Positions 42,180-45,857 of a stretch of DNA of 64,000 nucleotides are shown piece by piece. Source of the stretch: Haliangium sp. (GTDB lineage Bacteria > Myxococcota_A > Polyangia > Haliangiales > Haliangiaceae); NCBI RefSeq assembly GCF_050304635.1, contig NZ_JBNLDX010000012.1; one strand, written 5' to 3'. How positions within the stretch are numbered: the first letter of the stretch is position 1; each line of letters begins with the position of its first letter. The position numbers were made by a program, and so were the translations under genes. Below the pieces are notes generated by a model, which worked only from the letters and a program-made list of their open reading frames with translations, did not search any database and was not told the origin of the DNA.

Positions 42180-45100
42180 TCAGAACAGGCCGAGCTGTTC
42201 GTGCCCGGCCGGCGCTTTGCGCCGCGCGCGCCGTCGGTGGCGATCGAGCAGCGCGTCCTCGATGGCCGCAACGAAGGGCGACAGCGGCAGCTCGCAGGCC
42301 ACGCCGCGCCAGCGACGCTTGCGGGCGTGGAGCAGGTAGAGCTGCTCCTGGGCGCGGGTGAGGCCGACGAAGAACAGCCGCCGCTCTTCCGCGTCCGGAT
42401 CTTCGGACACCTGCCCGGTCATCACGGCATCCGCGGATGTCCCGGACAGAGACGCAGGCAAGCCGGCGCTCTCGAGTTGGGAGTCGGCGGGCTCGTCAGT
42501 CCCACGGCGACGGTCGTCGCCGGTCTCAGAGCGAGAGTCAATGACGGTTCCAGGGGCGAGAGCCTCGTCGGGCCTGGGGCGGCCGCCGGCGGTAGCCGTG
42601 CGAGCGCCCCAGCGCATGGGCAGGATGCCGTCTTCGCAGCCGACCAGGAACACGACCCGGAACTCGAGGCCCTTGGCCGCGTGCAGAGTGAGTAGGGACA
42701 CTCGGTCGGCGCGCGGGTCCCAAAGATCGACCTCGCTGTCCATGCTCAGCTCGGTGAGGAAGCCGGCCAGGTCGCCGCCGCAGCGAGCGGCGAGCGGGAG
42801 CAGCATCTCGACCGCGGTGTCGAGATCGAGCTGATCGGGGCCGCCGCGGTCGCCTTGGTCGTGGCCCTGCTCGGCCAGCAGCGCCGCGGCCGCGCGTAGG
42901 TGCTGCTCCAGTGGGCCGGGGCGGGTCAGGCCGTCGGGATCCTCGACGCCGTGATTCGGATCGCATTCGCCCGCGCGCTGTCGTGGGCTGGCCGCGTCCA
43001 CCGGCTCGACCGGGAGCGCAGCGTCGAGCGAGTCTTGCATGCGCTCGACCAACGCCTGCACCAGGGGCTGATCGGCCAGGCGGGTGTGGGCGCGGCGCTG
43101 GAACGGGATGCCCGAGCGAGCCAGCGCTTCGCACAGGGGCTCGGCCTGGCCCGCGACGCGGTACAGGACCGCGATGTCACCGAAACCGAGATCCGCACCA
43201 TCGCCGTGGTCGACCCGGCCGCTGTCCATGGAGAAGAAGCTGGTCCCGCCCATGAGCGCCTCGATGGTGTGCACCACGGTCTCGGCCTCGGCGCGCTCGC
43301 TGGCGGCCTCGATGATGGCGACGTTGCCGGGCTCGGCTGCGCCGGGCGCGCTCACTCGCTGCACCGCCACCAGGCTGCGCCCCGCGACCAGCGAGGTCGG
43401 CGCGATGGCCTGCACTGCCGCCTGTACGATGGTGGCGGTCGAGCGGTAGTTGCGGGTCAGATGGATCTCGCGGGCGCCGGCGAAGTCGTGGCGGAAGCGG
43501 AGGAAGAAGCCCACGTCCGCGCCCCGAAAGCCATAAATAGCCTGATCGGGATCGCCGATCGCGCACAGGCTGCGGCCCCTGGTCGCGTCGCCAGCGGGAG
43601 CGCTGATTGCGCCGCCGACGGAGCCGCCGATTGCGTCGGTGTCCGGCTCGTCCTCGGCATCACCGTCCATCTGTCCGCACAAGAGCTCGACCAGGCGATA
43701 CTGGAGCCCATCGATGTCTTGGTACTCGTCGATGGACACGTGCCGGAAGCGGCGCCGGTAGTCGCGGCGGATGTCGACCTCGTCGGCGAGCAGCCGGACT
43801 GCGCGCACCAGGAGCTCGTCGAAGTCCACCAGCGCGGCCTGTTCGAGCGCGGCCCGGTAGACAGCCAAGGCCGCGAGGGTATCGTCGTCCACGGGGGCGG
43901 ACTCGGGCGGGCTCGCCCGCAACAGCCCCAGCCGGGCCAGGCGGCTGAGCACCCCGGACGCTTTGCGCTGGCTGCAGCCCAGGGCCTGGGCCAGCACCGC
44001 GACCCGCTCGACCTCCCCGGCGACTCGGAAGCCGCGGTGGAGGCCGGCCCGGACCCGGTGTTCGCGCAGGATGGTGAGCCCCAGGCCGTGAAAGGTCGTG
44101 ACCGTGGCCCGAGCGCCCGCGGGCAGGAGCGCGGCCAGTCGCTCGCGCAACTCTGCGGCGGCGCGGTTGGTGAAGGTGATGGCCAGGCACGCCGCCGCCG
44201 GCACGCCGTGATCGACCACCAGGTGCGCGATGCGGTGCGTGAGGGTGCGGGTCTTGCCGGTGCCCGGCCCGGCGACGATGAGTAACCCCCCGCTGACGCA
44301 GGCAGCCGCCCGGCGTTGGTCGGGATCGAGCCCGTCGAGGACCTGGCTCCCCGCATCCGTCGCGGTGGCCGCCGATGCTGTCGGCGCGGCCGGGGGCGAG
44401 GTCGCTGCCCGGGGCTCGACGGTCGGCCCCGGGCCATTGCTGGGCGCGGCGGTGGAAGCGACAGGGGCCGCCACCCCAGCGGCATCGGTGGCGGGGGTGG
44501 CCGGCTCGGGCAGCGGCGCGGTGTCGCTCGGCTCGGGCAGCGCCAGATGCAGGCTGACGGCCGGGGTGCGGCGCAGCTCACCGTCTTCGAACAGCCGGAT
44601 CACGCCGTACTCGCCGTCAAAGCCGGGACTGCGGATGACCCGGCCCGCGCGCATGCGCGCCACCGCCTCGGCGACCTGGGGGTGACCGCTGCGGTCGAGC
44701 TCCTCGATCGGCAATCGGTCGAGGATGTCCAGCTCCGCGCCCACCTGGGCAATCAAGCTCTCGTACGTGCGCCCCACCCGCTTGCTGCCGGCGCCGGTAT
44801 TCAAGATCTCGGCCAGCATCTCGGGCAGCGGCACCAGGCTGCGGAACGGCGATGCCCCTTGGGGTCGAGCCCCGTGGGGGCGATCGGCCAGCTCGGTCAC
44901 CCGGTGCACCACTCCCACGGTTAGCGGTCGGCCGCACTCTGGGCACATCCCGCCGTGGGCCAGGGTCTGCTCCGGCTCGAGCACGACCCCGCACTTGCGG
45001 TGCCCGTCGAGGTGATACTTGCCCTCCTCCGGGAAGAACTCCAGGGTTCCGCCGTAGCCGGCGCGGGTCTCCAGCGCCCGGCGCATGGCGAAGTAGTCCA

Positions 45101-45857
45101 TGTCGGTCTCGAACACGCACACCTCGCGCCCCAGCTTGGCCGGCGAGTGGGCGTCCGAGTTCGACACCAGGGTGTAGCGGTCGAGCGCGCTCAGGCGCCA
45201 GTTCATGCTCGGATCCGAGCTGAGACCGGTCTCGATGGCGAAGATGTGCTCGCTGAGGTCGCCGTAGCAGGCGTCGATCTGGTCGAAGCCCGACTTCGAG
45301 CCCAGGACTGCGAACCACGGCGTCCACACGTGCGCCGGGATCAGGTAGCAGTGCTCGCCGGCGTCGAGCACGATCTCGAGCAGGTCGCGTGAGTCCAGGC
45401 CCAGAATGGGACGTCCGTCCGAACGCAGGTTGCCGATCTTGGCCAGGCGCGCCACCATGCGATCGACGCTGGCCAGGTCGGGTGCGTAGACCAGGTGATG
45501 GACCTTACGGGTCTTGTCGCCCTTCTTGTAGATGGTCGAGATCTCGACCGAGAGCATGAACCGCGGAGCCCGGGTCGCGGGCGCGCCGAGGCGCTCGCAC
45601 ACCGCCCGATCGAGGTCGTCGCGGAGCCGGAACAGCCCCGGCTCGGCAGGCACCAGCTTGTCCCTGAGCTCCTCCCGCCACTTGGGGTGGGTGAAGTCAC
45701 CAGTGCCGATCACGGCGATGCCCTTCTTGCGGGCCCAGTACGACAGGTGCTCCAGGTCGCAGTGCTTGCTGGTCGCCCGCGAGTACTTCGAATGAATGTG
45801 CAGGTCCGCGTAGAAGCTGTTCGATGACAGAGACATCGCGCCATTATCCTGATGCAT
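42180..45857 (-). CDS. Fusion of EndoQ-like PHP domain with CxxC zinc finger to UvrD/PcrA-family superfamily-1 helicase
   Basis: N-terminus YADLHIHSKYSRATS...IPAHVWTP...SNSDAHS (PHP metal ligands) and GMCPECGRPLTVGVVHRV (Zn finger), as in endonuclease Q. Then LLIVAGPGTGKTRTLTHRIAHLV (Walker A), ITFTNRAAAELRERL, DEYQD, TLHAAKGLEFRVVFLVGCEDGILP, LFFVGLTRA. Start at 45857 (alternative 45836). Confidence 0.85.
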   Translation of the reverse strand: MHQDNGAMSLSSNSFYADLHIHSKYSRATSKHCDLEHLSYWARKKGIAVIGTGDFTHPKWREELRDKLVPAEPGLFRLRDDLDRAVCERLGAPATRAPRFMLSVEISTIYKKGDKTRKVHHLVYAPDLASVDRMVARLAKIGNLRSDGRPILGLDSRDLLEIVLDAGEHCYLIPAHVWTPWFAVLGSKSGFDQIDACYGDLSEHIFAIETGLSSDPSMNWRLSALDRYTLVSNSDAHSPAKLGREVCVFETDMDYFAMRRALETRAGYGGTLEFFPEEGKYHLDGHRKCGVVLEPEQTLAHGGMCPECGRPLTVGVVHRVTELADRPHGARPQGASPFRSLVPLPEMLAEILNTGAGSKRVGRTYESLIAQVGAELDILDRLPIEELDRSGHPQVAEAVARMRAGRVIRSPGFDGEYGVIRLFEDGELRRTPAVSLHLALPEPSDTAPLPEPATPATDAAGVAAPVASTAAPSNGPGPTVEPRAATSPPAAPTASAATATDAGSQVLDGLDPDQRRAAACVSGGLLIVAGPGTGKTRTLTHRIAHLVVDHGVPAAACLAITFTNRAAAELRERLAALLPAGARATVTTFHGLGLTILREHRVRAGLHRGFRVAGEVERVAVLAQALGCSQRKASGVLSRLARLGLLRASPPESAPVDDDTLAALAVYRAALEQAALVDFDELLVRAVRLLADEVDIRRDYRRRFRHVSIDEYQDIDGLQYRLVELLCGQMDGDAEDEPDTDAIGGSVGGAISAPAGDATRGRSLCAIGDPDQAIYGFRGADVGFFLRFRHDFAGAREIHLTRNYRSTATIVQAAVQAIAPTSLVAGRSLVAVQRVSAPGAAEPGNVAIIEAASERAEAETVVHTIEALMGGTSFFSMDSGRVDHGDGADLGFGDIAVLYRVAGQAEPLCEALARSGIPFQRRAHTRLADQPLVQALVERMQDSLDAALPVEPVDAASPRQRAGECDPNHGVEDPDGLTRPGPLEQHLRAAAALLAEQGHDQGDRGGPDQLDLDTAVEMLLPLAARCGGDLAGFLTELSMDSEVDLWDPRADRVSLLTLHAAKGLEFRVVFLVGCEDGILPMRWGARTATAGGRPRPDEALAPGTVIDSRSETGDDRRRGTDEPADSQLESAGLPASLSGTSADAVMTGQVSEDPDAEERRLFFVGLTRAQEQLYLLHARKRRWRGVACELPLSPFVAAIEDALLDRHRRRARRKAPAGHEQLGLF

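Follow-up and report, generated by a model that had tools for sequence, protein, structure and literature searches.

Introduction

Most accounts treat Endonuclease Q (EndoQ) as an enzyme of archaea that only "a few" bacteria possess, and the characterized proteins cleave DNA 5' of deoxyuridine (dU), deoxyinosine (dI), deoxyxanthosine (dX) and apurinic/apyrimidinic (AP) sites (PMC4357722). The archaeal enzyme carries a PIP box that binds the sliding clamp PCNA with a KD of 55 nM, and PCNA stimulates cleavage (PMC4858679), while the original model of EndoQ repair already shows a step of "removal by helicase activity" (PMC4357722 Fig. 10). Here we describe the gene located on the minus strand at positions 42180-45857 of a 64,000-nucleotide stretch of contig NZ_JBNLDX010000012.1 from Haliangium sp. 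(hereafter the window), the product of which is a long-form bacterial EndoQ, that is, an EndoQ endonuclease followed by a flexible tether, a UvrD/PcrA-type superfamily 1A (SF1A) helicase and a basic tail with a sliding-clamp-binding motif.

Long bacterial homologues are on record. In a previous study (Shiraishi et al. 2016, PMC4858679 Supp. Fig. S1) putative C-terminal beta-clamp motifs were tabulated for 44 bacterial EndoQ homologues, 34 of which end at residues 945-1244, including proteins of Sorangium cellulosum (WP_012236160, 1089 residues), Chondromyces apiculatus (1109), Haliangium ochraceum (WP_012825435, 1161, ending in QLGLF), Caldilinea aerophila, Saccharopolyspora, Rhodococcus and Desulfovibrio spp.; the short non-Bacillus bacterial forms (~405-464 aa) likewise end in a clamp motif (PMC4858679). 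The terminal QLxLF peptide was considered as a new observation and rejected as such, being already tabulated there. According to the 2018 structure paper, EndoQ proteins fall into three families distinguished by their domain organization, and two of these are bacterial (PMC5961232). The helicase fusion is mentioned neither in the text of PMC4858679 nor in the other EndoQ literature found, but the databases already show the MJ0043_C, UvrD-helicase and UvrD_C architecture for homologues, and with the long forms and their clamp motif listed as well, the novelty of the architecture is low. The window protein belongs to the same length class (941-1244 aa) and has the same terminal QLxLF motif as the long forms listed, with Sorangium relatives at 54-69% identity, and differs from them by two extra low-complexity inserts in the helicase. 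Neither an identical nor a near-identical sequence has been recorded, and the best match reaches 66% identity; by sequence comparison the protein is a new, fairly divergent member of this recorded long-form family.

Gene model and domain organization

An uninterrupted open reading frame (ORF) fills positions 42180-45857 on the minus strand, from an ATG at 45857 to the stop codon at 42180-42182, and encodes 1225 aa. The G+C content at third codon positions (GC3) is 0.87, the kind of value that a real gene should show in a genome of 70% GC (the window is ~70% GC). A second ATG at 45833 (Met9), preceded by AGGA 13 nt upstream, yields the N-terminus M-x-FYADLHIHS, which resembles that of the homologues, and is probably a better start than the ATG at 45857; the domains are unaffected by this choice. 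An in-frame GTG at 46016, upstream of ATG 45857, is an unlikely start, and a plus-strand reading of the same region was ruled out, its translation being broken by stops. The preliminary description of this DNA had proposed an EndoQ-like PHP/zinc domain fused to a helicase in a single 1225-aa protein, and both parts are borne out, with the gene on the minus strand; what it overlooked is the C-terminal QLGLF clamp-binding motif. The features are listed below; those based on a model were taken from an AlphaFold2 model that covers residues 12-1211 and was computed from a 62-sequence alignment (mean predicted local distance difference test, pLDDT, 79; predicted template-modeling score, pTM, 0.60).

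42180-45857, minus strand: complete coding sequence, 1225 aa plus stop (ORF reading, GC3, full-length homologues)
45033-45809, minus strand: predicted EndoQ PHP catalytic domain, aa ~17-275 (alignment to P. furiosus EndoQ and 120 homologues)
44835-45029, minus strand: predicted EndoQ zinc-binding domain, aa ~277-341 (alignment; C249/C252/C268/C271 of P. furiosus EndoQ)
44583-44834, minus strand: predicted EndoQ C-terminal helical domain, aa ~342-425, ending in a conserved GFDGEYG hairpin (alignment to P. furiosus EndoQ, model)
44355-44567, minus strand: Ala/Pro-rich linker predicted to be disordered, aa 431-501, pLDDT <50 (model)
42276-44345, minus strand: UvrD/PcrA-type SF1A helicase, aa ~505-1194 (Pfam, NCBIfam, structure matches, motifs, model)
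44250-44273, minus strand: helicase motif I, AGPGTGKT, aa 529-536; the Q motif (aa 510-517) and motif Ia (aa 561-567) lie on either side
43716-43730, minus strand: helicase motif II, DEYQD, aa 710-714
43581-43637, minus strand: low-complexity insert predicted to be disordered, between motifs II and III, aa 741-759 (model, spacing)
43518-43556, minus strand: helicase motif III, aa 768-780, followed by motif IV, aa 801-806
42660-42686, minus strand: helicase motif V, aa 1058-1066
42405-42611, minus strand: low-complexity insert predicted to be disordered, between motifs V and VI, aa 1083-1151 (model, spacing)
42351-42368, minus strand: helicase motif VI, aa 1164-1169
42183-42245, minus strand: basic tail ending in the putative beta-sliding-clamp-binding motif QLGLF (consensus match, homologues)

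The EndoQ domain

Residues 17-425 of the window protein align with residues 5-385 of the 400 of Pyrococcus furiosus EndoQ (PfuEndoQ; 5zb8/7k30; E 6e-51 to 2e-49), a match that spans the PHP, zinc-binding and C-terminal helical domains, and the N-terminal domain also matches NCBIfam TIGR00375 (E 1e-45). The fold predicted for the N-terminal half superposes on PfuEndoQ 5zb8 with a template-modeling (TM) score of 0.84-0.85 and a root-mean-square deviation of 3.4 Å, and the helical domain corresponds to Pfam PF27218 MJ0043_C, as precomputed on homologues. Identity to PfuEndoQ is ~35% and among diverse homologues the domain is 63-74% identical. PfuEndoQ residues 5-385 were rebuilt from the HMMER alignment and then aligned with the query and 120 homologues, and the residues were read against the zinc ligands and pocket residues assigned in the crystal structure of PfuEndoQ (PMC5961232) and the further roles compiled in PMC8307549. 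The metal site of PfuEndoQ, H8/H10/E76/H84/H139/D193 (+H195), corresponds to H20/H22/E105/H120/H176/D235 (+H237), and all of these residues are kept in the query and invariant in the 120 homologues. The lesion-recognition pocket of PfuEndoQ includes H139 and D193 of the metal site, and its residues T142/E167/G169/L170/S171/N191 are likewise all kept, as T179/E209/G211/L212/S213/N233, and so is Trp144 of the adjacent b7-a5 loop (W181), which is predicted to stack into the duplex. The equivalents of T142, W144, E167, G169, L170 and S171 are invariant family-wide, and 109 of the 121 aligned sequences have Asn at the N191 position. Among the eight further residues checked the sole exception is L168, replaced by T210, a Thr that is fixed throughout the family. 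With seven of seven metal-site residues and seven of eight further residues conserved, the domain is distinct from a generic PHP phosphoesterase devoid of the EndoQ residues, and the alignment identifies it as a true Endonuclease Q homologue with a predicted intact active site and lesion pocket.

The zinc finger had been described beforehand as a CPECG...H pattern. The EndoQ zinc site is indeed present, with its four ligands in an HCCC arrangement (H286-x2-C289...C305-P-E-C308, the CPEC motif), but the His lies upstream of CPEC and not after it, where it replaces the first Cys ligand of PfuEndoQ (C249), and this substitution is fixed in the whole fused family. The comparison with the archaeal enzymes (PfuEndoQ PF1551 and TkoEndoQ TK0887; 5zb8, 7k30) is thus one of shared PHP, zinc-binding and helical domains, zinc ligands, lesion pocket and C-terminal clamp peptide, set against ~35% identity, an HCCC instead of a CCCC zinc site and the L168 to Thr exchange. 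Furthermore, the clamp peptide of the archaeal proteins is a PIP box, whereas here it is QLGLF and lies ~800 aa farther along the chain, behind a fused UvrD-type helicase for which archaeal EndoQ has no counterpart. Stand-alone bacterial EndoQ, both of the Bacillus pumilus/B. subtilis type and in the short clamp-motif forms, is the same endonuclease but has no helicase, and a Brevibacillus representative is ~31% identical to the query domain.

The C-terminal clamp-binding motif

The protein ends in ...RRKAPAGHEQLGLF, the last five residues of which are QLGLF (aa 1221-1225, positions 42183-42197). The bacterial beta-clamp consensus is QL[S/D]LF, revised to Q-phi-x-[L/M]-[F/L], where phi is a hydrophobic residue (PMC9690074; bioRxiv 10.1101/2025.08.20.671105), and QLGLF fits both forms. 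The strict consensus occurs in the last ten residues of 87 of the 120 full-length homologues, in 78 of them as the very last five, and the relaxed form in 108 of 120, the other 12 being near misses such as QLSFL and QLSLW; the background of the pattern is 1.5e-4 per internal position. Judged from these sequences, QLGLF is a canonical, family-conserved beta-clamp-binding motif. The protein had previously been called a self-contained single-protein unit, which is too strong, since the conserved terminal motif implies dependence on the sliding clamp.

The helicase half, the linker and the inserts

The claim that the protein contains a complete SF1 UvrD/PcrA helicase holds, as each of the motifs Q, I, Ia, II, III, IV, V and VI could be placed in the sequence, and the 62-sequence alignment shows no variation in the Walker A Lys, the DE of motif II or motifs III to VI. 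Pfam matches are UvrD-helicase (4e-58), UvrD_C (6e-29) and AAA_19, and the best matches to sequences of known structure are PcrA 1pjr (2e-59) and UvrD 2is1 (1e-58), with PcrA, UvrD, UvrD1 and Rep overall at ~1e-46 to 1e-59. Superposition of the modeled helicase half on the UvrD-DNA complex gives a TM score of 0.76. The 2B-equivalent region (aa ~925-1040) appears shorter, with four helices only, a count that comes from the secondary-structure string alone and is not rigorous. From the end of the EndoQ domain to Walker A there are 111 aa (family median 101, range 56-213), and disorder is predicted for the linker, for both inserts and for one loop in the 2B-like region. The inserts expand the spacing between motifs II and III to 53 aa (family median 22) and that between motifs V and VI to 97 aa (median 34), and both are lineage-specific. 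After motif VI only ~57 aa follow, in which no nuclease domain was detected.

Compared with UvrD, PcrA and Rep (2is1, 1pjr, 1uaa), the protein has all motifs and a predicted 1A/1B/2A fold and, by analogy with UvrD, would unwind from a nick, but it is not an equivalog, its 2B region appears reduced, it carries an N-terminal nuclease and, after motif VI, only a basic tail and the clamp motif. A UvrD-like motor covalently linked to a nuclease is also found in AddA, RecB and AdnB, and the AddA and RecB matches of the window protein are confined to the motor. In contrast to the predicted N-terminal, PHP-type, lesion-specific nuclease described here, which has no conserved partner gene, those proteins have their nuclease, of the PD-(D/E)XK type, at the C-terminus, are active on DNA ends and form heteromeric complexes.

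Distribution of the fusion in bacteria

The best 120 relatives found with the full-length protein are all full-length themselves (1024-1296 aa, 49-66% identity) and include Sorangium, Polyangia, Nitriliruptorales, Thermoanaerobaculia and Thermoguttaceae; their annotations read "UvrD-helicase domain-containing protein", "PcrA" or "TIGR00375 family". A scan with an EndoQ-domain profile, performed on one genome per species, gave at least 600 candidate stretches and at least 592 confirmed loci, and the locus comparisons presented here (phyla, fusion, neighbors) refer to the best 80 of these. They span about a dozen phyla, namely Planctomycetota, Myxococcota, Binatia, Actinomycetota (Micromonospora, Streptomyces, Salinispora and Saccharopolyspora, among others), Verrucomicrobiota, Acidobacteriota, Gemmatimonadota, Chloroflexota, Melainabacteria, Bacteroidota, Desulfobacterota, Alphaproteobacteria and Firmicutes. 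A single ORF encodes EndoQ and helicase in 67 of the 80 and two consecutive ORFs do so in 3, about 6 are stand-alone EndoQ and the remainder are cut by contig ends. In a library of representatives at 50% identity the EndoQ domain matches 1152 clusters at E<=1e-30, and 127 of the best 150 cluster representatives are at least 900 aa long, 104 of which carry the clamp motif. Full-length fusions of about a dozen phyla have this motif, and split genes have it on the helicase ORF. The EndoQ-helicase fusion is widespread in bacteria, not rare, and because the two parts are fused in 67 of the best 80 loci and adjacent in 3 more, with 127 of 150 representatives reaching 900 aa, the halves are likely to be functionally coupled.

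The three loci with separate adjacent or overlapping ORFs, in which the clamp motif is on the helicase ORF, are L047 (7866-11143, an Actinomycetota metagenome-assembled genome, MAG), L051 (7992-10920, a Gastranaerophilales MAG) and L066 (5485-8685, a Ruminococcaceae MAG); these may be true split genes or frameshifts. The stand-alone proteins (L016, L033, L039, L050, L064 and L065) are 58-66% identical to the fused domain and have no helicase within 8 kb, and their nested position within the fused forms suggests that they lost the helicase secondarily. L065 ends in APTLF, L033 has TLF ten residues from its end, and the other four are without a clear clamp motif.

Genomic context

In the window the gene is surrounded by genes for Ser/Thr kinases and for aconitase-family, beta-lactamase-fold, amidohydrolase and LNS2-type phosphatase proteins, and at the Sorangium locus it is flanked by a VgrG-like gene cluster and an alcohol dehydrogenase gene. 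All-against-all ORF clustering of the 80 loci revealed no neighbor conserved across phyla, only the gene itself and its shadow ORFs being shared. Within the Micromonosporaceae, however, both flanks are conserved in 11-14 genomes, across genera (MoaA, metallophosphoesterase, fructosamine kinase and GNAT genes), and this stable synteny points to a vertically inherited chromosomal gene. No copy of the EndoQ domain was found in 50,697 phage records, and only one in 72,556 plasmids, a stand-alone "endonuclease Q family protein" on a 733-kb Brevibacillus megaplasmid, ~31% identical to the query EndoQ domain. Matches in the viral structure library are limited to the helicase half. PADLOC reported only generic UvrD-core models (GajB and DRT helicase) on the helicase, no match for the EndoQ domain when this was run alone, and generic Ser/Thr-kinase matches only on 8 neighbor genes; no GajA-like (ATPase-TOPRIM) partner was found at the locus.

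Immediately downstream, an LNS2/PITM-type (lipin-like phosphatase) ORF on the minus strand (40865-42271) overlaps the 3' end of the EndoQ-helicase gene by at most ~90 nt when read from its TTG start; its true start is probably further downstream.

Other features of the window

Four Ser/Thr-kinase genes lie on the plus strand (15214-20487, 28347-32510, 38008-40080 and 53837-57991), three of them encoding giant multidomain proteins: a 1757-aa kinase with AAA_16, TPR, GAF and HATPase_c domains, a kinase with AAA_16, and a 1384-aa kinase with TPR. Their matches to the PADLOC PD-T4-6 model concern the kinase domain only. This set of kinases, like the gene content of the window, is suggestive of a myxobacterium-like chromosome. 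An ORF of ~700 aa at 59339-61462 (plus) resembles bacterial Major Vault Protein, with the shoulder domain PF11978 (8e-29) and a Vault_3 repeat. At 5982-10301 (plus) a SusC-like TonB-dependent receptor gene (CarboxypepD_reg and Plug) is directly followed by a SusD/RagB-like gene, a Bacteroidota-style pair in a genome of 70% GC. The protein encoded at 25158-28067 (minus) has 969 aa, six RCC1 repeats and a CBM96 carbohydrate-binding module, and a 1183-aa ORF at 49424-52975 (plus) has a weak AAA_22 match only and no PADLOC match. Positions 62001-64000 have a GC content of 0.575 versus ~0.70 elsewhere, contain an ORF of 464 aa (62504-63898, plus) and could be the edge of a foreign segment. The tRNA and Rfam scans of the window gave no matches.

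Discussion

A predicted intact EndoQ site, an SF1A motor, a tether and a clamp motif are thus combined in one protein and are under strong selection to stay together. Our favored reading, in which we place a reasonable though not high degree of confidence, is that of a clamp-recruited nick-and-unwind excision repair of deaminated or abasic DNA. The mechanism follows the domain architecture and is inferred from the characterized EndoQ enzymes and from the roles of UvrD, which acts at nicks in nucleotide excision repair and mismatch repair. The beta sliding clamp would recruit the protein to DNA, much as PCNA recruits and stimulates archaeal EndoQ via the PIP box, and the EndoQ domain would then flip out a deaminated base (uracil, hypoxanthine or xanthine) or an abasic site and cleave the phosphodiester bond directly on the 5' side of the lesion, which would generate a 3'-OH end. 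Loading at this nick, the tethered helicase would unwind from it at the expense of ATP, so that the lesion-bearing strand would be displaced and/or the enzyme released from its product, and repair would be completed by ligase and a polymerase, either Pol I or one bound to the clamp. Taken together, this would constitute a glycosylase-independent, clamp-coupled alternative excision repair of the chromosome.

Several observations weigh against this reading. The TIGR00375 score is 156.5 bits and does not reach the curated cut-off of 326.6, and therefore the N-terminal half is best placed in a divergent bacterial branch and filed as an EndoQ-family domain, not as an equivalog. The NCBIfam equivalog scores of the other half also remain far under their cut-offs (PcrA 320 of 911 bits, UvrD 276 of 965, Rep 250 of 951), which indicates a distinct UvrD-like subfamily, and consequently neither half is a strict equivalog of a characterized enzyme. 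Due to the L168 to Thr exchange in the pocket, specificity could differ from that of PfuEndoQ. With a pTM of 0.60 and a disordered linker, the model gives no reliable orientation of the domains relative to each other, and the ~6 close stand-alone relatives imply that some lineages can do without the helicase. Nor is it obvious why a helicase would be needed, since Pol I nick translation alone could process a nick whose 5' side carries the lesion, and a 3'->5' SF1A motor strips the lesion strand only when loaded on the intact strand. To our knowledge no assays of the long form have been reported, those EndoQ proteins that were assayed being stand-alone archaeal and Bacillus enzymes.

Apart from excision repair, the protein might be a fork accessory, in which a clamp-tethered Rep/PcrA/UvrD-like translocase would carry EndoQ along nascent or single-stranded DNA in order to find misincorporated dU or dI, or would process stalled forks, with no strand removal after incision. 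The terminal clamp motif would put the protein at and behind forks, EndoQ cleaves single-stranded substrates too (PMC6202378), a review proposes that EndoQ may belong to a replication complex (PMC8307549), and the long flexible tether suggests semi-independent modules. Nevertheless, cutting the single-stranded template at a fork would give double-strand breaks, and the clamp motif is the only sign of replisome contact in the sequence. PcrA and UvrD also carry a C-terminal Tudor-like RNA polymerase-binding domain, which is absent here, as the ~57 aa that follow motif VI leave no place for it, and we regard this role as possible but doubtful. It appears quite unlikely that the EndoQ-like domain has drifted to another substrate (ribonucleotides, mismatches, structure-specific nicks or flaps) and serves an AddA/RecB-like processing of ends or gaps. 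The family-wide fixation of the exchanges at L168 and C249, the low TIGR00375 score and an identity of only 35% to PfuEndoQ speak for such a drift, but the other pocket and catalytic residues are kept, including Asn at most N191 positions and the equivalents of His139, Gly169 and Ser171, whose reported role is to keep T and A out (PMC8307549), and L168 touches the base via its main chain (PMC5961232). In addition, the B. pumilus EndoQ is reported to have the archaeal specificity, and with a stand-alone Brevibacillus EndoQ ~31% identical to the query domain, divergence of this order need not alter specificity.

The preliminary description had left open whether the protein is a unit of repair or of defense against foreign DNA, and the first of these alternatives is favored. 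An anti-phage nuclease-helicase would recognize uracil-containing or otherwise atypical DNA, nick it and then shred or unwind it; nuclease-helicase fusions are common among defense systems, the helicase half matches the GajB and DRT helicase models, and an antiviral role has been proposed for Bacillus EndoQ (PMC8307549). These PADLOC matches, however, are confined to the generic UvrD core, the locus has neither a GajA-like nor any other conserved partner and its neighbors are metabolic and signaling genes. The lack of phage copies, the single plasmid copy, the stable Micromonosporaceae synteny and the absence of a PADLOC match on the EndoQ domain argue against a mobile defense role, and conservation across phyla is high, with a clamp-binding motif typical of replication and repair factors, which makes a function in defense very unlikely.

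In an extension of clamp-recruited excision repair, the long form would be the main bacterial EndoQ, a single-polypeptide excision machine that the beta clamp on newly replicated DNA would both recruit and orient, with the nick and the helicase excision directed to the nascent strand. We consider this extension unlikely; if true, it would provide a glycosylase-independent post-replicative route for dU and dI that were misincorporated or arose by deamination, comparable to the clamp-directed action of MutL in mismatch repair. The fusion ties a candidate downstream helicase to the nuclease and thereby offers a direct test of what follows the 5' nick of EndoQ. The names currently given to these proteins, "UvrD-helicase domain-containing protein" or "PcrA", mask a probable base-damage endonuclease, and with at least 592 loci, the best 80 of which are mostly helicase-fused with a clamp-docking tail, the bacterial range of EndoQ is much wider than the text of the literature implies.

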